Shown here one piece after another: positions 45 through 43,511 of a stretch of DNA of 64,000 bases (positions are counted from its first letter, which is position 1; each line of letters starts with the position of its first letter). The notes below the pieces were generated by a model. It searched no databases, was not told where the DNA came from, and saw only the letters and a list, made by a program, of their open reading frames with translations. Location: the sequence record OR167180. One strand, written 5' to 3'. The stretch is from Escherichia phage MIZ4. The translations under genes were made by a program, and so were the position numbers.

Positions 45-1283
45 TCAGTTTAGGGAAGTAAGGTCAAAGCTCATCATCCAACGGTAAGCATTCGGCACAG
101 GTTCTTTTACGAATGCGCCAGGATAAGTCTGCTTAGGCTGTATCTTGTTCTCCGGTACTACTTTACCCTCAGCTTTCAGAGATCCGAAGATAATAGCATC
201 CCATACTTTCATCGGGTTATAAACATGGTTAAATTTAATCTTTGCATAGAAACATAGGCTATACACCAGATCGATAAATCCACGCTTTTTATCAATCGCC
301 AGCACACGGTCAACGTCGCCGATGTTATAATCTATGTAAAGTTGATGGTTATCATCACGCAATTTCTTTAACGGACCATCATAATCAACCTTACCGATTC
401 CTGTCTCATATTCAGCAACATAATCTAACGCATATGTTGGTTGAGTCGTAAAGCTAAATTTCTTGTACAGGTCAATATAATCAAGGCTTTCGATCCCCAT
501 GATCGTAAATGCTTCACGCTCGTTGCCAAAATCATCCTGTGAGATTCGGGATTTAATCTTACCGCACGGGCTTAGACGGTTAGCGGTTCTACTTCCGAAC
601 TTATTACTGATACGTTTAATGATATATGGAATATCGAATGTTTCTGTGTTCCAGCCAGTGAAACCAACGGGTCGGTTTTCCTCAAAGAATCGGATGTATT
701 CTAACAGCAATTCATCTTCTGTGTCATAGACGTTATAAACAACGCGCTCTACAATATCAGGTCGAAGAATAGACTTGCTTGCTTCCCAGATTTCACCGCT
801 TTTTCCTTTCAAATCAAATACAAAGAAACGATCATGTACGGAATCATAATGCGTAATTGCATCGATAGGATATTTCGCTTCTTCTGGTTTAGGAAATTCC
901 GGTGCAGTGACCTCGATATCAACCCATGCTACACGGATTTTATTTCGGTCATATCGAATCTCGCCTTTATATGTATCGGACAGATAGGAGATGATAAAAT
1001 CATCCATCCCTAGTGCCTCCTGCCCCATTTCTCCCATCTTTTTACGCCATTTGTTGGCCTCGTTCATAGATGGGAATTTTTTAGCAATGCAAGGCTTGCC
1101 ATAGATATCTTTATAATTCGTAACCATACCAGGCGCGGCATGATGAAATAAAGTTGGCGTATATTCAACGTAACGCTCTTGTTCTTGTCCAGCATCATCA
1201 ATATAACGCTCGTAGATCTTATCACCCACTCGCTCACATGACAGAAAATACATAATATAAACTCCTTCACTTACGAAAGACAC
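45..1283 (-). CDS. 43: DNA polymerase (family B, T4 gp43-like), N-terminal exonuclease-domain fragment; frame ends at an in-frame TGA inside motif A
   Basis: Translation aligns by eye to the T4 gp43 N-terminus (KDIYGK, FPSM, LGMDDF, DAITHYD, LDYIDLYKKFSF, IDYNIGDV, MSFDLTSL); stop at 45-47 where T4 continues YPSII. Confidence 0.85.
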   Translation of the reverse strand: MSFVSEGVYIMYFLSCERVGDKIYERYIDDAGQEQERYVEYTPTLFHHAAPGMVTNYKDIYGKPCIAKKFPSMNEANKWRKKMGEMGQEALGMDDFIISYLSDTYKGEIRYDRNKIRVAWVDIEVTAPEFPKPEEAKYPIDAITHYDSVHDRFFVFDLKGKSGEIWEASKSILRPDIVERVVYNVYDTEDELLLEYIRFFEENRPVGFTGWNTETFDIPYIIKRISNKFGSRTANRLSPCGKIKSRISQDDFGNEREAFTIMGIESLDYIDLYKKFSFTTQPTYALDYVAEYETGIGKVDYDGPLKKLRDDNHQLYIDYNIGDVDRVLAIDKKRGFIDLVYSLCFYAKIKFNHVYNPMKVWDAIIFGSLKAEGKVVPENKIQPKQTYPGAFVKEPVPNAYRWMMSFDLTSLN

Positions 1284-5055: not shown

Positions 5056-6724
5056 TCATTTCAGTGAATCGCCCACGTTTAACCATCTTGAGATGACGGC
5101 TAAAATCATCAGGGTTATGGTCACGATGGCTGATAATATACACGTTATCATCTAACTTGTCAATGATGGAATCAAGTGCTTTTACGCCTTGAACGTCCGT
5201 AGCCCCATCATAAATTTCGTCGAGTACCAACAAAGAAATATTAGTACCAGATACCTTACCAGCAACATCACGCCATGTAAAGAGCATCGCAAGGTCAATA
5301 CGTGCTTTTTCTCCTTGACTGAATGATGTATACGAAAACGATTCACGCCCCCGTGATTTAATTGTTTCGTTAAACTCTTCATCTAACGTAAAGATATAAT
5401 CAGCTTCCATGATATCAAGATAATACGCAATCCGATCATTGAAATATGGAATATATTTCTTGACGATAGACGCCTTAACACCGGAATCCTTCAACATTTC
5501 TGTTACAAATCCACGGTGATATTTTTCAAGAACTAGCTTTGATTTTTCATTAGTAATCTCTACCAGTTCGTGTTCCAGTTTAGCAAGTTCTTCGGAATTG
5601 TCAACCCTTTCTTTTTGTAATTCCTGAATTGCTTTCTGGATCTGTTTAGCCCGACCTACAGATGCCGTTAAATTCGCTCTCTGTGACTCTATAGCGCGTT
5701 TAATTTCCAAGACCTTAGTTTGTGCTGTCTGGAAAGAATTGGCCTTCTCTGCGTATTCTACGCGTTTCTCGTCAATCAGAGACAGTTTATGTTCTGCTTG
5801 TGCTTTTTGTTCGCGTACAGCTTGATCATTACCCTGAATGATCGGTTGTGTGCACGTAGGACAGACCCCGCCTTTCTCATGCATATGAATAACACGGTCA
5901 AAGTTCTGGATCTGCGCACCAATCTGTGCGATAGCCGTATTAATTTTAGCCAATGCCGCGCTAGGATCTTCCGGCATAACAACAGCCAATAGCTCATCGG
6001 TCAAGCGCGTTTCTTCGGCTTTAAATGCTTTAGCCGATTCTACCTCTTTATCATACATATTCTGTAAACGCTGGAGATTCTCGGCACTCGCCTTGCTAGC
6101 GTCTTCTATGTACTTTTTATGAGTGTTGATTTGTTGCTGAACGTGATTAGCTTTCATTTCCTGCATTTGGATATTCTGGGTTATCTCGCGCACATACGCT
6201 TTATTCAGTTTATCCATTTCTCCCAATGTGGCAATATCAAGCAAATCCTCGACCAGCTTACGGCGACCCGCTGCCGGAAGACTCATAAACGGAACATAAC
6301 CAGCAGTGCCTAAAACAACGATCTGTTTAAAGCTGGCTAGGTTCATGCCTATGATACCTTCAAAATATTCCTGAAAGTCTTTGGTGCTTGCGCTCTCGTC
6401 GATCTTTTGTCCGTCGCGATGCACTTCGAATACTTCCGGCTTTTGTCCACGTTTAATATAAAATTCTTTCCCGTCCAGTTCAAACCAGACTTCGACTAAC
6501 AGTTTCTTTTTGTTGACGCTGTTAATCAATTGGCCTTTCTTGATACTACGAAACGGTTTACCAAACAATACAAAGCAAAGCGCCTCAATCATGGTCGATT
6601 TACCAGCACCGTTAACACCAGTGATTAGTGTCTTTTTGAATCCGTCTAGCTGAATCTCAACAGGTTCAGCACCCACGCTCATTATATTTTGATAGCGCAA
6701 GGTTTTAAAATTTAACTTTGCCAT
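5042..6724 (-). CDS. 46: recombination endonuclease subunit gp46 (SbcC/Rad50-like ATPase)
   Basis: NIMSVG, Walker A GVNGAGKST, long coiled-coil middle, C-terminal YIFTLDEEFNETIKSRGRE..FSQGEKARIDLAMLFTWRD..LVLDE matches T4 gp46 almost residue for residue. Confidence 0.85.
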   Translation of the reverse strand: MAKLNFKTLRYQNIMSVGAEPVEIQLDGFKKTLITGVNGAGKSTMIEALCFVLFGKPFRSIKKGQLINSVNKKKLLVEVWFELDGKEFYIKRGQKPEVFEVHRDGQKIDESASTKDFQEYFEGIIGMNLASFKQIVVLGTAGYVPFMSLPAAGRRKLVEDLLDIATLGEMDKLNKAYVREITQNIQMQEMKANHVQQQINTHKKYIEDASKASAENLQRLQNMYDKEVESAKAFKAEETRLTDELLAVVMPEDPSAALAKINTAIAQIGAQIQNFDRVIHMHEKGGVCPTCTQPIIQGNDQAVREQKAQAEHKLSLIDEKRVEYAEKANSFQTAQTKVLEIKRAIESQRANLTASVGRAKQIQKAIQELQKERVDNSEELAKLEHELVEITNEKSKLVLEKYHRGFVTEMLKDSGVKASIVKKYIPYFNDRIAYYLDIMEADYIFTLDEEFNETIKSRGRESFSYTSFSQGEKARIDLAMLFTWRDVAGKVSGTNISLLVLDEIYDGATDVQGVKALDSIIDKLDDNVYIISHRDHNPDDFSRHLKMVKRGRFTEMNVNI

Positions 6725-6968
6725 TAATCCACTCCGCAATCACACATTCCATAATATTAAATGCTAACACATCTTCATCAATGTTGTAAACACTTGCCGC
6801 CTTCACTTTAACTAATGTGTCTCTGCGATCTGGCAACATGATCACATAATCCAGTGTCGCCGGATCATATGTCATAAAGGGATCAACATAAATCCCTTTA
6901 TTCAATGCCAGATATTCGCGAAGACCTTCTATAACCCTGTGTCTAAGGTAGGTCATCGATAGAATCAT
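6705..6968 (-). CDS. hypothetical protein
   Basis: 87-aa ORF between 47 and 46. Confidence 0.3.
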   Translation of the reverse strand: MILSMTYLRHRVIEGLREYLALNKGIYVDPFMTYDPATLDYVIMLPDRRDTLVKVKAASVYNIDEDVLAFNIMECVIAEWINGKVKF

Positions 6969-7561
6969 TTTAGTTTATGTTCCTCTAAAAATTCTTCAAT
7001 TTCACCTTGCAGGTCTTCCGCTTGTTGTTCCAGAATATCGCGAAATTCACCTACAGTCAAGCGGTAATCACACTTCACTAGTCGATGCGGGAGAATATAC
7101 CCTTTATACATTGTCTCTGACGCTTCCAGGAATACCCCACTATGCATGACAGAGATCCAACCTGTTAGCGTCAATGGAGTATTCGGAAAATAATACTTGC
7201 TGGATTGTTTCCACTGGACGAAAGCACCATATACAATCGGATTATATTCACCAACCACACTCTTAATAATGGATTCTACTTTGTCTTTTACAAAGTCGCC
7301 AATGCCCATAGTCACCATCAACTCTTGTGGGTGAATCACTTTAAGGTAACGACGGTAGCCGTCATCATACCACAGCTTAACCACTGGCTGACCCCACATT
7401 TTAGCAATACGCGCTTTCAGATAACCATAGATCGGATTCTTGTAATATGATTGTTTTAGTGTGTATGCGTGCACCAATTCAATAAAATATTCCATTGCTA
7501 TCGAATCAGGATCAGCCGCGACCATAGTCGTATTCATAATATGTTCCTCGTTCAATTTCAT
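6965..7561 (-). CDS. hypothetical protein
   Basis: 198-aa ORF, overlapping start/stop with neighbours. Confidence 0.4.
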   Translation of the reverse strand: MKLNEEHIMNTTMVAADPDSIAMEYFIELVHAYTLKQSYYKNPIYGYLKARIAKMWGQPVVKLWYDDGYRRYLKVIHPQELMVTMGIGDFVKDKVESIIKSVVGEYNPIVYGAFVQWKQSSKYYFPNTPLTLTGWISVMHSGVFLEASETMYKGYILPHRLVKCDYRLTVGEFRDILEQQAEDLQGEIEEFLEEHKLK

Positions 7562-7829
7562 ATTGTTTCAGGTCTTCTAAAAGTTCATCCACTGCTTGTT
7601 TCAGTGTATGACGCAGCGTAAAGTAATAGCTTTCATCAAATTCTATTTCCGCGCGAGGAATAGAGCGAATCTTACACTTAACAGTAGTATCGGTGAGTCG
7701 CTTTTCGACCATCATCCGAACTTCTTCATGCTCTTTGGAATACCATACATCAACGGAGATTCCCTTACGGCGAGCGAACATAGGCAACGCTGCATTAAAT
7801 TCCATTACTTTTTGTGCAAGTGTTTTCAT
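7512..7829 (-). CDS. hypothetical protein
   Basis: 105-aa ORF. Confidence 0.35.
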   Translation of the reverse strand: MKTLAQKVMEFNAALPMFARRKGISVDVWYSKEHEEVRMMVEKRLTDTTVKCKIRSIPRAEIEFDESYYFTLRHTLKQAVDELLEDLKQYEIERGTYYEYDYGRG

Positions 7830-31827: not shown

Positions 31828-32030
31828 TTACATTTAGGGCAATGCGGTTCTTTAATATAATACCCGTCTGTCTTTGGAACACTAACAGGAGCGGTTTTTA
31901 TATTGTATTCAGTGAAACAACGAAAACAAGTTACGTTTTCTACAGACTGACGTTTCACCCAATCACCGGAATATAGATCATTTTTATTTGTCATATTCAA
32001 CCACCACAATGTTAATGTCTGGAGTAGCAA
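31800..32030 (-). CDS. hypothetical protein
   Basis: 76-aa ORF. Confidence 0.3.
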   Translation of the reverse strand: MLLQTLTLWWLNMTNKNDLYSGDWVKRQSVENVTCFRCFTEYNIKTAPVSVPKTDGYYIKEPHCPKCKCRLYWSHL

Positions 32031-32439
32031 TATTAATGATCTCTTCTACACATTCCCACTCAAGGCCACCGATACCGCAACCGATTTTAGGAATATAGAA
32101 AGGCTGTATAGCACCTTCAAAAACATCATTGATAGTCTCAAATCCTTTCAGGATAGCACCATATTCAGCATTTGGACCCGGTCGGAATTGGGTATATAGA
32201 TTCACCCCGCACCAGTTATAACCATTAACTTGATGCGTCCAGACACTAAACCAACCCAGCTTTTCTACCTTACCGCGAGAAGTTTGCTTGTCAATCTCTA
32301 ACGTTTGCGGGAACTCTTTCGCGATCTTTGCAGCAATACCAGCGCCCATAGTATGAAAACAATTACAACCATGAATTAAATGACCGTTTCCTTGTTTAAA
32401 CAGGGCGATGAGATCGCCCTTTACAGTATCAATAATCAT
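31984..32439 (-). CDS. macro-domain protein (ADP-ribose binding/hydrolase fold)
   Basis: HGCNCFHTMGAGIAAKI and a glycine-rich IGCGIGGL element typical of macro domains. Confidence 0.55.
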   Translation of the reverse strand: MIIDTVKGDLIALFKQGNGHLIHGCNCFHTMGAGIAAKIAKEFPQTLEIDKQTSRGKVEKLGWFSVWTHQVNGYNWCGVNLYTQFRPGPNAEYGAILKGFETINDVFEGAIQPFYIPKIGCGIGGLEWECVEEIINIATPDINIVVVEYDK

Positions 32440-33497: not shown

Positions 33498-33920
33498 TTA
33501 TTGGTCTACCTTCAAAACAACCGCCGACATTTTACCCGCCAGTCGTTTTGGATTCTCTATAATCATTCGGCAGCATAGACCGTGATATGGCTTACCCTCT
33601 TCGATTAGATCTACTGTCATCCCGATCCACATGTTACCGTCAGTAATTTCTAATCGATTCGGTCGGTCTTCCATTTTCAGGAAGTCGAAGATCTCCGGCA
33701 AACGAGTTTCTATCTTATTGAATAGTTCCATTGTCTTATGTTCATCGATATGACGATCGGTTAGACGGTCGATCATATGCGGACTAAATCGAATGAAAAT
33801 ATACTCACCGTAACCATCATTCAAGCACTTTTCTTTGATCTGCGCATTGGTTTTGCGCATTTCGGTTTCGAAGAATCTACGCAGCTTACTACGGCGAACA
33901 TGTACGTTAATTGTTTCCAT
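33498..33920 (-). CDS. regB: endoribonuclease RegB
   Basis: INVHVRRSKLRRFFE, RLEITDGNMWIGMTV, CRMIIENPKRLAGK match T4 RegB; start taken at METINV. Confidence 0.8.
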   Translation of the reverse strand: METINVHVRRSKLRRFFETEMRKTNAQIKEKCLNDGYGEYIFIRFSPHMIDRLTDRHIDEHKTMELFNKIETRLPEIFDFLKMEDRPNRLEITDGNMWIGMTVDLIEEGKPYHGLCCRMIIENPKRLAGKMSAVVLKVDQ

Positions 33921-33924
33921 TTTA

Positions 33925-34260
33925 TTATCCTTTCTTAAACAAATTGCGAAGCCAGTATACAAACGGGATTTCTTTAAACTTGAATTTCTCAATAGTTAAT
34001 TCTTTAGTAGCAAGATGAATACCATAAGCATCATGTGTAACTATATGCCATTTTCTATAGTCCAAATGTGAACAACCGTCTGGATCTAGGTTAATAAGAG
34101 TTTCTCGCTCACTAGGATTATTTTTCCACAATTTTGTAATAGGATCGCACATAATTCGACCTAGCGTACCATGAATAATCTCACAACGGTAAAGTTTTCC
34201 AGCAGTGAGATAGGCGCACCCGTCATAGTCGGTATAAACAAACACTTCTTTAACACTCAT
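33925..34260 (-). CDS. small paralog family C member
   Basis: DGCSHLDYRKW motif; start at the cassette RBS (MSVKEVF). Confidence 0.35.
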   Translation of the reverse strand: MSVKEVFVYTDYDGCAYLTAGKLYRCEIIHGTLGRIMCDPITKLWKNNPSERETLINLDPDGCSHLDYRKWHIVTHDAYGIHLATKELTIEKFKFKEIPFVYWLRNLFKKG

Positions 34261-34291
34261 TTTAATACTCCTTTGTTGTTTCGATGGGGGT

Positions 34292-34320
34292 ATATTACTA
34301 CCCCCGATCATGTGTGTCAA
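34292..34320 (-). promoter_or_regulatory. early promoter cassette, TTGACA-17-TAATAT, palindrome GGGGGTA..TACCCCC
   Basis: minus strand TTGACA CACATGATCGGGGGTAG TAATAT ACCCCC then CATCGAAACAAC leader. Confidence 0.5.
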
Positions 34321-34581
34321 CTACTTTTTCAAGATTTTTTTAATTGCATTCCAAAGACCTTTATTCCCAGGTTGTTTTGGTTCTTCGATCAGTGTCCATG
34401 TTCGACCGTCTAAGTGTGCACAATTTTTAAGACAAATAAAAATCTGGTGTCCTTTATCATCACGGATATAACCACTATTCGCAAATCTTTCATGTGGTGT
34501 ATATTCATACAGTGTATTTGGTGTAATATACTTGCGGTTACTATAAGGTGTCATCACATACATCATGGTACTAACTCCCAT
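34321..34581 (-). CDS. small paralog family C member
   Basis: YEYTP..GYIRDDKGHQIFICLKNCAHLDGRTW. Confidence 0.35.
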   Translation of the reverse strand: MGVSTMMYVMTPYSNRKYITPNTLYEYTPHERFANSGYIRDDKGHQIFICLKNCAHLDGRTWTLIEEPKQPGNKGLWNAIKKILKK

Positions 34582-34757
34582 TTATCACCGCGAAGATGAG
34601 AACATACACCATCAAGAAGGATCGTAATACGATAACCTATATCATCTTTGATGTAACCGATTGTCGGTGGATGTTCGTCGTCTCGTGCCGGGGTAAAATC
34701 ATACATCTTTCCAGGCGTAATATCTTGTCCTTTATTGCTATTGGTATAAACTTGCAT
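34563..34757 (-). CDS. small paralog family C member
   Basis: YDFTP..GYIKDDIGYRITILLDGVCSHLRGDKW. Confidence 0.35.
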   Translation of the reverse strand: MQVYTNSNKGQDITPGKMYDFTPARDDEHPPTIGYIKDDIGYRITILLDGVCSHLRGDKWELVP

Positions 34758-34778: not shown

Positions 34779-35477
34779 CTAACCACGGGTATAGTGTTCC
34801 AGAACAACTGTCAGATGAATATATTCTAATAGATCTTTCCAAAAGTCAACATCTGGTTCTTCCGGCATACCGTTTTTCTTTGCCTCTTCACGCGCGAGTT
34901 TAACACGCTCGTAGAGATCTTTCAATTCTTCCCGCACATTATCAAAGGTTCTTTCTCCTAACTTACACGCTAAAATAGAAGAACGTCGCGCGAGCGGGAA
35001 TTGTAGATCACCAGTTTGATAGATTTCAAGTAGCTGATAACCAACACGCAGAGCATGAGAAAGATCTTTCCAGTTACTGAAATACTTTTCAGATTTTGCT
35101 ACCTGTTTCTTGAGATAACCAGACAAACCCCACATCCCAACATGATAGAATTTATCGCGATGTGTTCGGATGTATTCCCATTCTCTGGAGGATTCAACCA
35201 ACATGTTACTAGGCGCGTGCACCATATCAATAGCGCCGATATCACCTTTACATGCCAGATTGATAAACCGTTTTAGACTGAACATATTAACGTCAATATC
35301 GTCTTTGGTGTTCTTGATACCTTGACCGCTAGTGCTTTGGTCATAGTGTTCTTTCATAGATCCTAAGATAATTTCTTTCGCAGTCGGAACAAAGATACCA
35401 CGATAATCTTTATCTGAATTTTCAGTATCAAGGCCGTACAAGTGAGATCCGAAGACCATTTTAACCATTGTATGCAT
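34779..35477 (-). CDS. nucleotidyltransferase (DNA polymerase beta superfamily fold)
   Basis: minimal NTase signature GSHLYGLDTENSDKDYRGIF (GS..x..D.D) near the N-terminus. Confidence 0.55.
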   Translation of the reverse strand: MHTMVKMVFGSHLYGLDTENSDKDYRGIFVPTAKEIILGSMKEHYDQSTSGQGIKNTKDDIDVNMFSLKRFINLACKGDIGAIDMVHAPSNMLVESSREWEYIRTHRDKFYHVGMWGLSGYLKKQVAKSEKYFSNWKDLSHALRVGYQLLEIYQTGDLQFPLARRSSILACKLGERTFDNVREELKDLYERVKLAREEAKKNGMPEEPDVDFWKDLLEYIHLTVVLEHYTRG

Positions 35478-35495
35478 AATTAAACCCTCAGTTGA

Positions 35496-36089
35496 TTAAA
35501 CGTATTCAGCAACAACATTATGTTTAAAATTACCGCTCCTTTTTGGATTTGGATTTTTCAATCGACTATGTATTAAATTTTTGTTGTATCCGGTTGCTTT
35601 AGACGCTTCGCCAATACTTTGATAAACAACACCATTAACACGAATCGGACGAGACTTATTAAACAGTTTATTCAATCCGGCATCATATGCATGGTTTTGG
35701 TTTTCTTGCCTCGTTGCGATCTCAAGATTCCAAACACAATTACAAGATTTTACCCCACTTTTATGATTAATTTCAAGACCTTCACAATCACCTATAAAGT
35801 GTTCAGCAACTAGTCTATGAATATAGCGATATTTCTTACTTTCCCCATCATGCAAGCATACATTATAATAACCATCACCAGCGCGTTTAGGTCGGAGTAG
35901 TTTACCTTTAACACGTTTTATAGTAGGGAACTCACCAAATTGATTTCTCTGGATAAACGGAATCTCGCGGTCTAATGAACGGATTCGACCATAGTTAGAC
36001 ACTTGATAAAAACTTTCATATCCTTTAATTGGCTTCCATATCTCAGGGATTTCTACACCATCAATAACAACAAGTTTAAATTCTTCCAT
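35496..36089 (-). CDS. freestanding HNH homing endonuclease (NUMOD4 + HNH)
   Basis: NUMOD4-like YESFYQVSNYGRIRS; HNH HRLVAEHF..INHKSG..CNCVWNLE..TRQEN. Confidence 0.75.
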   Translation of the reverse strand: MEEFKLVVIDGVEIPEIWKPIKGYESFYQVSNYGRIRSLDREIPFIQRNQFGEFPTIKRVKGKLLRPKRAGDGYYNVCLHDGESKKYRYIHRLVAEHFIGDCEGLEINHKSGVKSCNCVWNLEIATRQENQNHAYDAGLNKLFNKSRPIRVNGVVYQSIGEASKATGYNKNLIHSRLKNPNPKRSGNFKHNVVAEYV

Positions 36090-36109
36090 ACTTCACCTCA
36101 TAAAAATAA

Positions 36110-36131
36110 AGCCAACCCTTTCGGATTGGCT
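36110..36131 (-). terminator. rho-independent terminator
   Basis: AGCCAATCC GAAA GGGTTGGCT then T-rich tract on the minus strand. Confidence 0.55.
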
Positions 36132-36137
36132 TGTTGA

Positions 36138-36551
36138 TTACATAGATTCCGTAAAGGTACGGGTGATAATATCAAGTTGTTGTTCGCGTGTCAAGGCGTT
36201 GAAGCGGGTAGCATAACCACTGATTCGAATTGTAAGCTGCGGGTACTTCTCAGGATGTTCAACCGCATCAAGAAGAGTCTCCCGACGCAGTACATTCGCG
36301 TTGAGATGATGACCCGCGTTACTATTTACCCCGTTATCAATTGCTAAAGGACGGAAGCTAGTTGTGTGCAGTTCCAGCGAATCGACGTCTTCTGCGGTGA
36401 TCACATGATCTTCTGCGAAAGTTTTACTAACAATTACTTTAGCGCCGATCAGTGCTTTCGGTTCGGATACCAGAATCATAGGCGCGAAATGTCCACCGAT
36501 AATAGTACCTTTATGCTCACCTTTCATGATTTGAATTGCTTTAAATTCCAT
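36138..36551 (-). CDS. autonomous glycyl-radical cofactor (GrcA/YfiD-like)
   Basis: [57 protein letters not shown] closely matches E. coli YfiD, including the RxSGY radical motif. Confidence 0.8.
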
Positions 36552-37234: not shown

Positions 37235-37624
37235 TTATTTTGGATCTGGGTATTTGCTGTGTGGTAGCTGAAAATGAACACCGTCTTTAAAACTAGTCCA
37301 ATCCCCACCCCATTCAACAGGAACACCCAATTCTCGACCAGCTTGTTTAAATGCATCCGCGATCATGCGGTAGTATTTCATGTTCCATGTATCCTTATCT
37401 TTCGGATACGCTACAACGTCAACCGCGAAACCGTGAAGATGACGAGATTTCATAGTCTTAGATTTACCTTCCGCAACATATTTCTTTTGCGTTTCTAGAC
37501 TACGTACACCTTCCGTAATACCAAAATCGACCGGAGTCAGTTCTAACGCACGATGAACGACTTTTACCAGGTCAGGATGCACACCAACAAGCCGATCTTT
37601 GCTTCTTTGAGATAATTTAAACAT
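37235..37624 (-). CDS. endolysin, peptidase M15 family
   Basis: zinc-ligand motifs SRHLHGFAVDV and DGVHFQL; occupies the position of T4 e. Confidence 0.7.
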   Translation of the reverse strand: MFKLSQRSKDRLVGVHPDLVKVVHRALELTPVDFGITEGVRSLETQKKYVAEGKSKTMKSRHLHGFAVDVVAYPKDKDTWNMKYYRMIADAFKQAGRELGVPVEWGGDWTSFKDGVHFQLPHSKYPDPK

Positions 37625-40057: not shown

Positions 40058-40246
40058 TTAGTATTTTTTCATAATTTCTAGAGCAGTTTCTACAGCACCT
40101 TTCCAACCTTCCCACATAATGGACATAGTAAGGAAGTTAAAGCACCCGCAGGAATCAACCTTTTTAGAGATAAACCATTCTACAAACGCTTCGCTCATAC
40201 CATGCTCTTTAGCGGATTCGCGTAATTGTTCAATTTGGTCTTCCAT
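40058..40246 (-). CDS. hypothetical protein
   Basis: 62-aa ORF. Confidence 0.3.
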   Translation of the reverse strand: MEDQIEQLRESAKEHGMSEAFVEWFISKKVDSCGCFNFLTMSIMWEGWKGAVETALEIMKKY

Positions 40247-40255
40247 AGTATCACC

Positions 40256-40444
40256 TCAGCATTTAACATTATTCAAACGATTTTGAAAGTACACATAGCA
40301 AGCATAATTTTGCTTTGGCTGTACTGTATCAGATAAACATGCTTTTACAGCCTCGCGGTCCGATGGGTCTACACCCTCAGCTTTAAGTAATGCTAAAATC
40401 TGGTTATAGCGTACTCTTAGTTGCACTAATGGTTTCTCCCCCAT
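40256..40444 (-). CDS. hypothetical protein
   Basis: 62-aa ORF. Confidence 0.3.
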   Translation of the reverse strand: MGEKPLVQLRVRYNQILALLKAEGVDPSDREAVKACLSDTVQPKQNYACYVYFQNRLNNVKC

Positions 40445-40454
40445 ATTACCCCCC

Positions 40455-40676
40455 TTATAGTTGGTCAGCGATGTAAGCGTGACAAGCGCGGAGTTTCATT
40501 AATGCACTACCTTTCACTTCGCCTACGATGTTCATAACTTCTAAGCGGTCGGATGGATTCATCTTAGAGCACCAGATCTGGTTAGCCAATTCCAGTTTAC
40601 TCATATTTGGTTCCATCTCAAACAGTTCACGCTCAAAGTCGATAATTTCTTTTGCTGCGTCTTTAAAGTTAATCAT
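40455..40676 (-). CDS. hypothetical protein
   Basis: 73-aa ORF starting at the cassette RBS. Confidence 0.3.
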   Translation of the reverse strand: MINFKDAAKEIIDFERELFEMEPNMSKLELANQIWCSKMNPSDRLEVMNIVGEVKGSALMKLRACHAYIADQL

Positions 40677-40705
40677 TTTGATTCTCCCGTTTCGTTGATG
40701 GTTGT

Positions 40706-40734
40706 ATTGTAGGGGAGTTATCCTCCCCTGTCAA
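40706..40734 (-). promoter_or_regulatory. early promoter cassette, TTGACA-17-TACAAT, spacer palindrome GGGGAGGATAACTCCCC
   Basis: minus strand TTGACA GGGGAGGATAACTCCCC TACAAT. Confidence 0.5.
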
Positions 40735-40742
40735 CACTTTTA

Positions 40743-40928
40743 TCAGAAATATGCAATATAGTTTGCCAGTCCTACAGAGTCATCATTCGGCATTGCTTTT
40801 ACTGCCAGTTCAAACCCTGCTTCAACTTTCTGTTTAGCGGATTCTTCGTTATAACCCCAGATTACCAGAATAGCTACTACGTTTTCTTTGCTTACTGCTT
40901 TCAGTGCTTTAGTGATGCGACGTGCCAT
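40743..40928 (-). CDS. hypothetical protein
   Basis: 61-aa ORF starting at the cassette RBS. Confidence 0.3.
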   Translation of the reverse strand: MARRITKALKAVSKENVVAILVIWGYNEESAKQKVEAGFELAVKAMPNDDSVGLANYIAYF

Positions 40929-40973
40929 AATTTGATTCTCCGTTTAAGAAAGTGTGTTTCGTTTCGATGGGTG

Positions 40974-41003
40974 TATTATGCTATAGGCCGGATCTGGTGT
41001 CAA
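40974..41003 (-). promoter_or_regulatory. early promoter cassette, TTGACA-18-ATAATA
   Basis: minus strand TTGACA CCAGATCCGGCCTATAGC ATAATA then leader CACCCATCGAAACGAAACAC. Confidence 0.5.
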
Positions 41004-41036
41004 CAACTTTTTTAAAAAAATTTTAGGCAATAAAAA

Positions 41037-41056
41037 AGCCACTCCGAAGAGTGGCT
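41037..41056 (-). terminator. rho-independent terminator
   Basis: AGCCACTC TTCG GAGTGGCT then TTTTTTATT on the minus strand. Confidence 0.55.
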
Positions 41057-41204
41057 TATAGGGAAGGTAGCGAATCTTCCTTGTCTCCAACCTGCTAGCG
41101 GCCTAGCAAGTGAATGCTTTAGCGTACCGGGTCGCCCATACGCTGTAATAAATGCGGCTAGGTGACGTCCAAATCATTCTAACCGCGCTGTCTTTAGTTC
41201 ACTA

Positions 41205-41838: not shown

Positions 41839-41926
41839 CAGATCATAAGAAACCCCAACGCAATAAGAATTGCATCAAATTTAGTGAACTCCGGTCCACC
41901 TATCAACATCATTCGTTCCTGTTCAT

Positions 41927-42124
41927 TCATAGATCACAGAGCCATCTTAAAGCACCACATAAAGCGAGCAGAATACTAGGTATAAACGAGACTAAAACAA
42001 GTTTACAAAAATCATCTAAGGTAACACCGGAATAGCTACCTACTGTAACAACACCGATCATCAGACACAGAAAGAAAACAAATGCAATCAGAAACAAAGT
42101 ATTGCTAAACAGTTTAGTGATCAT
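41927..42124 (-). CDS. small membrane protein
   Basis: 65 aa, hydrophobic. Confidence 0.3.
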   Translation of the reverse strand: MITKLFSNTLFLIAFVFFLCLMIGVVTVGSYSGVTLDDFCKLVLVSFIPSILLALCGALRWLCDL

Positions 42125-42329
42125 TAGACACCCCCACGACGATCAATTTCAAAAACTTTTTTTACCATCAACGAAGCATGTCACAACTGCCTCGTTGACT
42201 TCCGCAAATTGTTGTGTTACCCACTTAAGGTCAGATCGAAACAATGTTCTATTAATAACAAATGTTTTACCGCTCTTATCCTTACCCATAAATTTTGCTT
42301 TAACCATATCCAATTCCATATTATCACCT

Positions 42330-42488
42330 TATTTGCTAATCGCTAAACCTAATCCGAAGAGAGCACCCGAGGCTACAGTATACCCGAAAGTTTCAAAGGC
42401 AGTAAAGACATCTAAGCCACCAGCTAACAGAGTTGCAGTAAACAGAGTACCAGCTACGAACATAAAAGTTTTACCGATAAATTTCATT
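42330..42488 (-). CDS. small membrane protein (not in ORF track)
   Basis: hand translation MKFIGKTFMFVAGTLFTATLLAGGLDVFTAFETFGYTVASGALFGLGLAISK, immediately downstream of cassette 42519-42547 with the canonical AGGAGAATCAAA RBS. Confidence 0.4.
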
Positions 42489-42518
42489 TTGATTCTCCTT
42501 TCGTTTGTTTGTGGGGGT

Positions 42519-42547
42519 ATCTTACTACCCCCGTTTCATGTTGTCAA
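42519..42547 (-). promoter_or_regulatory. early promoter cassette, TTGACA-17-TAAGAT, palindrome GGGGGTAG..CTACCCCC
   Basis: minus strand TTGACA ACATGAAACGGGGGTAG TAAGAT ACCCCC. Confidence 0.5.
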
Positions 42548-42553
42548 CTATTT

Positions 42554-42931
42554 TTAAGAATATTTTACTTCGTCTACAATGTCTTTCATGACATTGATTT
42601 CCATTCCGGTCAGAACACGTTGGAACATGTGCTGCACATACGCTTTCAGGTATTCATTTGATGGCTTACTATCGAAAGTCTTTTTAGTGTAGTAGTCATC
42701 ACCGAAAGCTACTGTAATTACATTTTCGTCGTCGTTCCAAGCGATATAAGCAAATTTGCCGTTATCCCAGAAGCGAGCACTAATTGCTACTTTTGTTGAA
42801 TCGAATCCTACTTCGCTGTGAGATTCAAGAACTACTTGCGTACCAGTTTCTTTATGAATGTAGTAGCGGGATACTAAGTCAAAGTTACGGGTGTAGTGAC
42901 ATTCGAATTTATCTTTAAACATCATCATCAT
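42554..42931 (-). CDS. hypothetical protein
   Basis: start set at the ATG run after the cassette RBS; the ORF-track extension runs through the promoter. Confidence 0.35.
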   Translation of the reverse strand: MMMMFKDKFECHYTRNFDLVSRYYIHKETGTQVVLESHSEVGFDSTKVAISARFWDNGKFAYIAWNDDENVITVAFGDDYYTKKTFDSKPSNEYLKAYVQHMFQRVLTGMEINVMKDIVDEVKYS

Positions 42932-42967
42932 TTTGATTCTCCTAAGTGTGTTTCGTTTCGATATGTG

Positions 42968-42997
42968 CATTATGCTATAGTCGTTTATGGTTGTCAA
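42968..42997 (-). promoter_or_regulatory. early promoter cassette, TTGACA-18-ATAATG
   Basis: minus strand TTGACA ACCATAAACGACTATAGC ATAATG then leader CACATATCGAAACGAAACAC; directly after terminator 43015-43033. Confidence 0.5.
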
Positions 42998-43040: not shown

Positions 43041-43511
43041 TTACAGTTTGGTCGTCCACTCCAGGTCTAGATCTTCGACATACTCATGAGATCGGACAAT
43101 CTCTAAATCGAACTCTAGGTCAGTGCCAAATTTACGCGCACCAACATCATAAGAAAGCGTGATATGCGGTACATATTCAGGATAATCCCACGTCGCACCT
43201 AAAGCAGTGCCGATATCGTGTCTGAATTGCATGTAGTCGCTTTCAAATGCCAGCACAAGCGCATTAGTACTGGATTGAGTTTCAAACACTTTCAGATGGC
43301 ATAGAGAGCCTAAGAACTTCTCCCCTTCTTCTGGGATAAACGGAACATAGACACGAGAATATAAGATAGTGCTATGCAGTTTATCACGAGGAACGGCATT
43401 AGGCAGATCGTAGAACTCCTGCAATTTTTCAATGCGGTCTAGTGTATCCTCAGTGAATTTAACCGCAGCATATGTACCTTTAACGGATTCTCGAAACGGG
43501 GTCATAATCAA
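43041..43511 (-). CDS. 57B: 2H-phosphoesterase-fold protein, T4 57B/Acb1-like (candidate anti-CBASS cyclic-nucleotide phosphodiesterase)
   Basis: two H-x-T-x motifs (KLHSTILY and VPHITLSY) in a 156-aa protein immediately before 57A, as T4 57B. Confidence 0.65.
   Translation of the reverse strand: MIMTPFRESVKGTYAAVKFTEDTLDRIEKLQEFYDLPNAVPRDKLHSTILYSRVYVPFIPEEGEKFLGSLCHLKVFETQSSTNALVLAFESDYMQFRHDIGTALGATWDYPEYVPHITLSYDVGARKFGTDLEFDLEIVRSHEYVEDLDLEWTTKL

Follow-up and report, generated by a model that had tools for sequence, protein, structure and literature searches.

A compact RlaP-family nucleotidyltransferase of Krischvirus, counterpart of T4 NrdC.11, with a proposed role in tRNA repair

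Introduction

RlaP, the "RNA ligase-associating Pol-beta" family of Pfam (PF10127), was the subject of a December 2025 preprint on two bacterial members, PfRlaP and PaRlaP, which add one or two NMPs to RNA 3′-OH ends and can also use dNMPs (PMC12776372). Both enzymes prefer Mn2+ and, given a tRNA mimic cleaved at the anticodon, act preferentially on its 5′ half; neither DNA nor protein was labelled. When RlaP acted before ligation, the aminoacylation of a tRNA missing one anticodon-loop nucleotide was partially rescued. In the crystal structure of PfRlaP, a cleft separates the NTase domain from a helical domain, and the last helix packs back against the NTase domain. What RlaP does biologically is put forward as a hypothesis (PMC12776372).

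In phages, comparative genomics predicted that RlaP restores the nucleotides removed by RloC-type nucleases before ligation, and RlaP and RNA ligases are distributed alike across jumbo phages (PMC7824862). A similarity network of PF10127 has NrdC.11 of phage T4 in cluster 5 and PfRlaP and PaRlaP in cluster 1a (PMC12776372). The literature on nrdC.11 that we found consists of genome descriptions and one deletion study only. Among solved folds, the nearest described system is HalB, from the Hailong anti-phage system (PDB 9dbh); HalB is a tetramer that carries out tyrosine-primed poly-dA synthesis and acts as a host immune regulator.

Here, we analyse a nucleotidyltransferase (NTase) gene located in a stretch of 64,000 nucleotides from Escherichia phage MIZ4 (OR167180), hereafter the window. 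Public records already annotate this gene, its family is already named and partly characterised, and the literature has drawn attention to the T4 homologue. The modestly new elements are the existence of a compact NrdC.11 without its accessory domain, the apparent repeated loss of this domain within the clade and the identification of HalB as the nearest solved fold.

Results

The gene and its family

Over the 5 kb that were compared, the window and Escherichia phage MIZ5 (OR167181.1; Krischvirus, Straboviridae) show 100% identity, and window coordinates are obtained by subtracting 96000 from those of the MIZ5 record. The preliminary description had placed a 232-aa ORF at this position and had given no strand; the ORF is borne out and lies on the minus strand (Table 1). 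Its CDS is identical (100%) to positions 130779-131477 of OR167181.1, where it is labelled "nucleotidyltransferase", as it also is in the RefSeq record of phage GEC-3S. The start codon is an ATG, and an 18-nt gap separates it from the stop codon with which the HNH gene upstream ends. Compared with GEC-3S, the gene carries 12 synonymous changes and a single non-synonymous one, and the resulting dN/dS of ~0.02 indicates that it is functional and under selection. We confirm this ORF as a real gene.

Table 1. Features of the NTase locus (window coordinates unless the MIZ5 record is named)
Feature	Position	Strand	Basis
CDS, RlaP-family nucleotidyltransferase, 232 aa + stop	34779..35477	minus	ORF listing; = MIZ5 WNA15276.1
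Shine-Dalgarno-like GAGGG, 7 nt 5′ of the NTase ATG	35485..35489	minus	read from sequence
N-terminal Pol-beta-type NTase domain, ~residues 1-115	35133..35477	minus	AF2 strands 2-9, 24-30, 44-48, 62-67, 93-96 with interleaved helices, pLDDT mostly >90
G10-S11 ... D22-x-D24 motif (NTP-binding turn and first two metal-binding aspartates)	35406..35450	minus	invariant in alignments A1, A2
D60-I-D62 at start of strand 62-67	35292..35300	minus	both invariant; strand position from model
C-terminal helical domain	34782..35132	minus	helices 116-131, 136-155, 165-172, 178-201, 210-229
Junction residues 128-136 (KSEKYFSNW), insert site of T4-type NrdC.11	35070..35096	minus	BLASTP vs RB32 NrdC.11; alignment A1
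Free-standing HNH homing endonuclease gene, immediately upstream of NTase	35496..36089	minus	NUMOD4 E 1.7e-18, HNH_3 E 2.5e-10
Terminator-like hairpin after glycyl-radical ORF	36109..36132	minus	consensus scan
Three small paralogous ORFs, downstream of NTase gene	33925-34757	minus	64, 81, 111 aa as annotated
RegB	33498-33992		
M15 endolysin	37235-37624		
Pnkp	MIZ5 record 40183-41061		AAA_33 + HAD_PNKP
Rnl1	MIZ5 record 41878-42996		RNA_lig_T4_1 + T4_Rnl1_C

The protein almost certainly belongs to the RlaP family. Indeed, it matches PF10127 with 54.1 bits (E 2.3e-14; the curated gathering threshold is 23 bits), residues 7-191 running contiguously on model positions 24-198 of 249, and it matches PHROG 388 "nucleotidyltransferase" with an E-value of 2e-79. 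An NCBIfam search with the same protein gave no match, and PADLOC returned only a spurious CARF match (E 0.03), with neither a toxin-NTase nor a CD-NTase among its matches. Sequence searches of the PDB with the NTase protein, the clade profile, a canonical RlaP or a Bacillaceae RlaP as queries produced chance matches only.

Homologues of the NTase were detected by tblastn in 1620 phage records, and 3559 relatives were retrieved at E<=1e-3 from a library of 1.84 billion cluster representatives. Once Krischvirus is set aside, nrdC.11 of T4-type phages comes nearest, with ~45% identity (42-48%) over the shared parts, and from this comparison we conclude that the NTase corresponds to T4 NrdC.11, in a compact Krischvirus form. 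We found no orthology to a characterised housekeeping enzyme. The assignment to the Pol-beta superfamily that had been made from the sequence is correct and is supported by PF10127, PHROG 388, the structural model and the fold matches presented below; the homology to T4 NrdC.11, the existing annotation and the named family had been missed.

Several observations were made on these relatives. Many NrdC.11-type database entries, including UniRef cluster names, are called "thioredoxin" or "glutaredoxin", and one is called "HNH homing endonuclease". We considered and rejected a thioredoxin or glutaredoxin identity, no such domain being present: RlaP is the sole domain found in the proteins so labelled, and the misnaming probably spread from the gene name nrdC.11 or from adjoining genes. 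In a delta-proteobacterium MAG (CAVQBT010000021.1, our locus L007), a long NrdC.11-type RlaP (311 aa, 6001-6936) lies directly before a canonical RlaP (254 aa, 6963-7727; PF10127 E 5.9e-81), a tandem of two very divergent RlaP paralogues that suggests non-redundant roles. Short RlaP homologues of ~250 aa, 26-28% identical to the window protein, are found in Bacillaceae (Bacillus tequilensis, L021, 3606-9995, with similar loci in L013-L049). Their neighbours are prophage-like replication genes (SNF2 helicase, HTH_36 protein, IstB-like loader), and no RNA ligase gene adjoins them. Finally, a metagenomic protein of 94 aa (P0179) matches the window protein exactly over its first ~69 residues and continues with unrelated sequence up to a stop; either a frameshifted allele or faulty assembly of a Krischvirus-like contig probably accounts for it.

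Catalytic motifs and predicted fold

Residues 10-27 of the NTase, GSHLYGLDTENSDKDYRG, carry the GS...D.D signature from which a nucleotidyltransferase had been proposed. The residues of this signature are invariant across homologues. More generally, G10, S11, D22, D24, D60, D62 and D84 are all invariant among the 19-25 homologues of alignments A1 and A2, so that the acidic residues expected in the catalytic centre are kept on careful alignment. The Pol-beta pattern, made of an hG[GS] turn, a Dh[DE]h motif after 9-13 residues and a third carboxylate on a later strand, is present as G10-S11, D22-K-D24 and D60-I-D62, and in the AlphaFold2 (AF2) model these residues sit on predicted strands and turns. 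In a pairwise alignment with the canonical RlaP of L007 (6963-7727), which spans NTase residues 5-89, GS, D22/D24 and D60/D62 fall on GS, SDYD and DDLDI. This alignment, together with the invariance, points to a predicted catalytic triad formed by D22, D24 and a third aspartate that we propose to be most probably D62 rather than D60.

The AF2 model is confident (pLDDT 92, pTM 0.88); in it, a helical domain follows the N-terminal NTase domain, an RlaP-like domain order, and the terminal helix (210-229) is long. Structure prediction and fold comparison, which the preliminary description had recommended, thus recover the minimal NTase alpha/beta fold, and the top matches are all NTases: HalB, 3c18, the kanamycin NTase (KNTase), LinB, AadA and DrrA. 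The size of the protein had been described as lying between a minimal NTase and the cGAS/DncV-like enzymes; this is accounted for by a helical domain that extends the minimal NTase fold at its C-terminus. A cGAS/CD-NTase-like signalling enzyme was considered and rejected, since no CD-NTase match was obtained with Pfam or PADLOC and none occurs among the top 50-60 fold matches. An antibiotic NTase was likewise rejected, as the similarity is one of general fold only.

Probable loss of an accessory module

T4-type NrdC.11 proteins are 300-350 aa long, whereas the window protein, with its 232 aa, is devoid of a folded alpha+beta insert of ~100 aa (T4-type residues ~131-235). BLASTP and multiple alignments show that it aligns to the long forms over residues 1-128 and 136-222, and at the insert site it has 7 residues versus 83-130 aa in the long forms. 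In the model of a T4-type protein (P0009, pLDDT 87), the insert is a folded alpha+beta module located between helices 1 and 2 of the helical domain. The window protein is ~105 aa shorter than nearly all its close relatives, and contiguous short forms account for only 4 of the best 150 of the 3559 cluster representatives (P0002, P0141, P0154 and P0232). The Pfam core model (249 positions) does not include the insert: it is contiguous on the short forms and breaks at ~position 142 in the long ones. The prophage relatives of Bacillaceae likewise have no insert.

We addressed the origin of the short forms by a neighbour-joining analysis rooted on the Bacillaceae relatives, with 100 bootstraps. Neither the long forms nor the short forms were monophyletic in any of the 100 bootstraps. 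P0154 pairs with a long form in 98/100, the MIZ5 protein falls within a T4-like subclade in 65/100, and the long forms share conserved residues inside the insert. From this bootstrap pattern and the conserved insert residues, the simplest reading, at the level of neighbour-joining and not of a rigorous phylogeny, is that the NrdC.11 clade has dispensed with the ~100-aa module on at least two or three occasions, and that the Krischvirus protein would be a secondary, streamlined derivative. The short form is shared by P0002, which is 57% identical to the window protein, covers PF10127 model positions 23-229 and also keeps the gene order endolysin, 160-aa ORF, 39-aa ORF, glycyl-radical ORF, HNH and RlaP. 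As it is devoid of the ~100-aa module of the T4 enzyme, the short form may differ in its substrate range.

Genomic neighbourhood

The location of the gene in the regB-endolysin interval, flanked by an HNH gene and by three small paralogues, had been correctly described and is borne out by coordinates and domain matches. The HNH gene is a typical free-standing homing endonuclease gene, with no evident functional tie to the NTase. It is missing from most Krischvirus records, where 88% of a 5-kb query is covered in two pieces, and it is found at the same place in L052, a relative whose NTase is only 57% identical. In GEC-3S an annotated terminator directly separates the glycyl-radical ORF from the NTase gene; in MIZ5 the HNH ORF is placed between the equivalent hairpin and the NTase start. 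On the other side, the three small paralogues are ~41-42% identical and share invariant residues including C..HL....W; a Pfam search with them gave no match. An Rfam search over 30-40 kb returned nothing, and the base composition is unremarkable.

Other genes of the phage deserve a mention. Just upstream of the HNH and NTase genes, positions 36138-36551 (minus) encode a 137-aa protein in which only a C-terminal glycine-radical region is recognised (PF01228, E 9e-16); it resembles a GrcA/YfiD-like autonomous glycyl-radical cofactor. A distant relative has this ORF, the HNH gene and the NTase gene in the same order. A Macro-domain protein (PF01661, E 4.7e-6; 31984-32439, minus), annotated as "phosphatase", adjoins vs and regB; it could process ADP-ribose derivatives, with a bearing on RNA repair or on the reversal of ADP-ribosylation. 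The CDS at 43041-43505 (minus), called "RNA ligase" in MIZ5, in fact encodes an Acb1 anti-CBASS 2H phosphodiesterase (PF23474, E 5.8e-51) that matches the 2′-5′ RNA ligase superfamily only below threshold, and this annotation is misleading. Finally, the DNA polymerase gene is annotated as two CDSs (window 45-1253, minus; MIZ5 record 93461-95902) with an HNH endonuclease CDS between them (record 95078-95902), and gene 43 appears split by an intervening homing endonuclease.

Discussion

Proposed function

The preliminary description had listed for phage NTases the modification of nucleic acids or proteins, the repair of tRNA and interference with nucleotide-based immune signalling. Membership of PF10127 and the biochemistry of the bacterial RlaP enzymes narrow this list to tRNA repair, which we favour, the options of immune signalling and protein modification being weaker rivals. 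We consider it probable that the NTase adds one or two nucleotides, in a template-independent manner, to damaged RNA 3′ ends and thereby feeds a tRNA repair mediated by Rnl1. Here, the activity and the substrate are extrapolated from the distant bacterial RlaP, while the gene, its family, the conserved residues, the fold, the selection and the co-occurrence with Pnkp and Rnl1 are taken from the present data. Indeed, MIZ5 encodes both Pnkp and Rnl1. No tRNA gene was found in the 160 of 165.5 kb of MIZ5 that were scanned, so that the phage relies on host tRNAs; with both repair enzymes encoded, the restoration of nucleotides during tRNA repair is the best reading. Moreover, counted by genus, phage records with the NTase and with Rnl1 run in parallel (606/636 for Escherichia, 285/287 for Klebsiella, 83/83 for Shigella and 69/69 for Acinetobacter), although these parallel counts may simply reflect a shared Straboviridae ancestry.

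We can propose the following scheme. A host anticodon nuclease of the RloC type would cut a tRNA and also remove a nucleotide. The phage Pnkp would heal the ends, after which the NTase would bind the broken RNA by its 3′-OH end, in the cleft that separates the NTase domain from the helical domain. There, D22, D24 and D62, together with two divalent metal ions (probably Mn2+), would catalyse the untemplated addition of one or two NMPs. Phage RNA ligase 1 would then seal the loop, and a fraction of the tRNA molecules would be functional again.

Several findings count against tRNA repair. The characterised RlaP enzymes are only ~22% identical to the window protein, over the N-terminal domain only, and they fall in a different network cluster from the NrdC.11 clade. 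In MIZ5, the NTase gene lies ~90 kb from pseT and rnlA, so that the operon linkage behind the RlaP name is absent; its neighbours are the HNH endonuclease, the glycyl-radical protein, small ORFs and RegB, and no RNA ligase or repair gene adjoins it. T4 NrdC.11 is likewise not beside RNA-repair genes, yet it was included in the family (PMC12776372). In addition, T4 tolerates deletion of the fragment from nrdC.11 to mobD.3, and the closest solved fold, HalB, has a different chemistry.

The NTase might instead tail intact RNAs of the host or the phage at their 3′ ends (tRNA CCA ends or mRNAs, for example), leading to blocked charging or decay marking and to an early takeover of host gene expression; the outcome would resemble that of the MenT-type NTase toxins. 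The catalytic core and the family would be the same as for repair. Bacterial RlaP does label intact rRNA- and tRNA-sized species and also single-stranded RNAs, with little NTP specificity (PMC12776372). Moreover, the gene is unlinked to pseT or rnlA and sits in an early block near RNA-directed functions (the RegB endoribonuclease, vs, the Macro-domain protein and, further on, Dmd). Still, RlaP prefers the damaged-tRNA mimic over free strands (PMC12776372), the distribution of the NTase parallels that of Rnl1, and neither a toxin-like context, a partner gene nor a PADLOC match to toxin NTases was found, so we regard RNA tailing as unlikely. Another function would be that of a HalB-like, template-independent synthase of oligo(deoxy)nucleotides, possibly protein-primed, whose products would imitate or top up an inhibitory immune signal so that a Hailong-type effector stays off; more generally, the enzyme would interfere with nucleotide-based immune signalling. 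This is very unlikely. The identity to HalB is only 12-14%, the NrdC.11 profile and the canonical RlaP fail to detect HalB even at E<=10, and the kanamycin NTase, 3c18 and DrrA match almost equally well, which makes the likeness one of general two-domain NTase architecture. Furthermore, RlaP adds just one or two nucleotides and does not extend DNA (PMC12776372), PADLOC yields no family match, and the phage already has a dedicated anti-CBASS enzyme, Acb1.

An extension of this idea to the whole NrdC.11 clade, with a synthase making decoy or inhibitory oligo(deoxy)nucleotides against nucleotide-gated host immunity instead of repairing RNA, and the repeatedly lost ~100-aa domain tuning which host system is targeted, strikes us as highly improbable. 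We hold an equally low opinion of a transfer of nucleotides to a small molecule or a protein, be it a host protein or a metabolite, in the manner of the aminoglycoside ANT, LinB or the DrrA- and GlnE-type AMPylases: fold matches to such enzymes exist, but with 9-13% identity, TM-scores of ~0.4 and no sequence-level signal, whereas RlaP is the only family match and PfRlaP did not label E. coli proteins (PMC12776372). Finally, the scarcity of contiguous short forms among the best 150 representatives and the deficit of ~105 aa relative to nearly all close relatives could be read as signs of a decaying or non-catalytic remnant, inactivated by the loss of the module. This reading is largely refuted, and we give it hardly any credence: the dN/dS is ~0.02, all motif residues are kept, the model is confident and compact, the short form fits the 249-position Pfam core contiguously, as do the ~250-aa Bacillaceae relatives, and a 57%-identical relative has the same short architecture.

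If nucleotide restoration in tRNA repair is indeed the function of the NTase, T4-like phages would hold a third tRNA-repair component beside Pnkp and Rnl1. Such an enzyme would restore the nucleotides lost to wobble-excising anticodon nucleases such as RloC, a counter-move predicted by comparative genomics. In the NrdC.11 clade, no natural version is smaller than the Krischvirus protein, whose main value is that of a small and tractable enzyme with which to ask whether phages have an answer to anticodon nucleases that excise nucleotides; it is also a natural control for the role of the 100-aa module of the T4 enzyme. Its small size and the strong purifying selection acting on it make it convenient for biochemistry and crystallography.

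Comparison with known systems

The closest sequence relatives of the window NTase are T4 NrdC.11 and its Straboviridae homologues (PHROG 388), with ~45% identity over the N-terminal 128 and the C-terminal 90 residues. The window NTase has in common with this clade the GS, DxD, DxD, D84 and WK..H..R motifs, the fold outside the insert and the presence of one copy per genome, and T4-type nrdC.11 genes also often adjoin homing endonuclease genes (mobD or seg-like). The map positions differ: the window NTase gene lies between e and regB, whereas the T4-type nrdC.11 is found downstream of tk and mobD.

With the bacterial RlaP enzymes (PfRlaP and PaRlaP, encoded in rtcB operons), the window NTase shares the Pfam family, three conserved aspartates and the order of the NTase and helical domains. 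It is also near the family core size (232 aa versus ~250 aa), with no insert. However, the ~22% identity is detectable pairwise only in the N-terminal domain, and no RNA ligase gene adjoins the window gene. Furthermore, the latter belongs to a virulent phage, in which the repair pathway uses the 5′-phosphate ligase Rnl1 and not RtcB.

The two-domain layout is common to the window NTase, RlaP, HalB and the kanamycin NTase. HalB, with the identity given above, has no profile-level sequence relationship to it, and no gene for a HalA-like channel accompanies the window NTase. ANT(4′) and related antibiotic NTases (1kny, 6un8; LinB, AadA) share the combination of a minimal NTase and a helical domain, and ANT(4′) is the best Foldseek match (E 5.6e-5). 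These enzymes nonetheless differ by their small-molecule antibiotic substrates, their identity of 10-11% and TM-scores of ~0.4, and they have no sequence family in common with the window NTase. The class II CCA-adding enzymes, including phage-encoded ones, match the fold only weakly (3h3a, Foldseek E 0.12), are much larger, carry other accessory domains and act at the acceptor end with a defined CCA specificity. They are nevertheless the functional analogue of the proposed activity, as they restore nucleotides at tRNA 3′ ends, untemplated, by means of a Pol-beta fold (PMC7824862).
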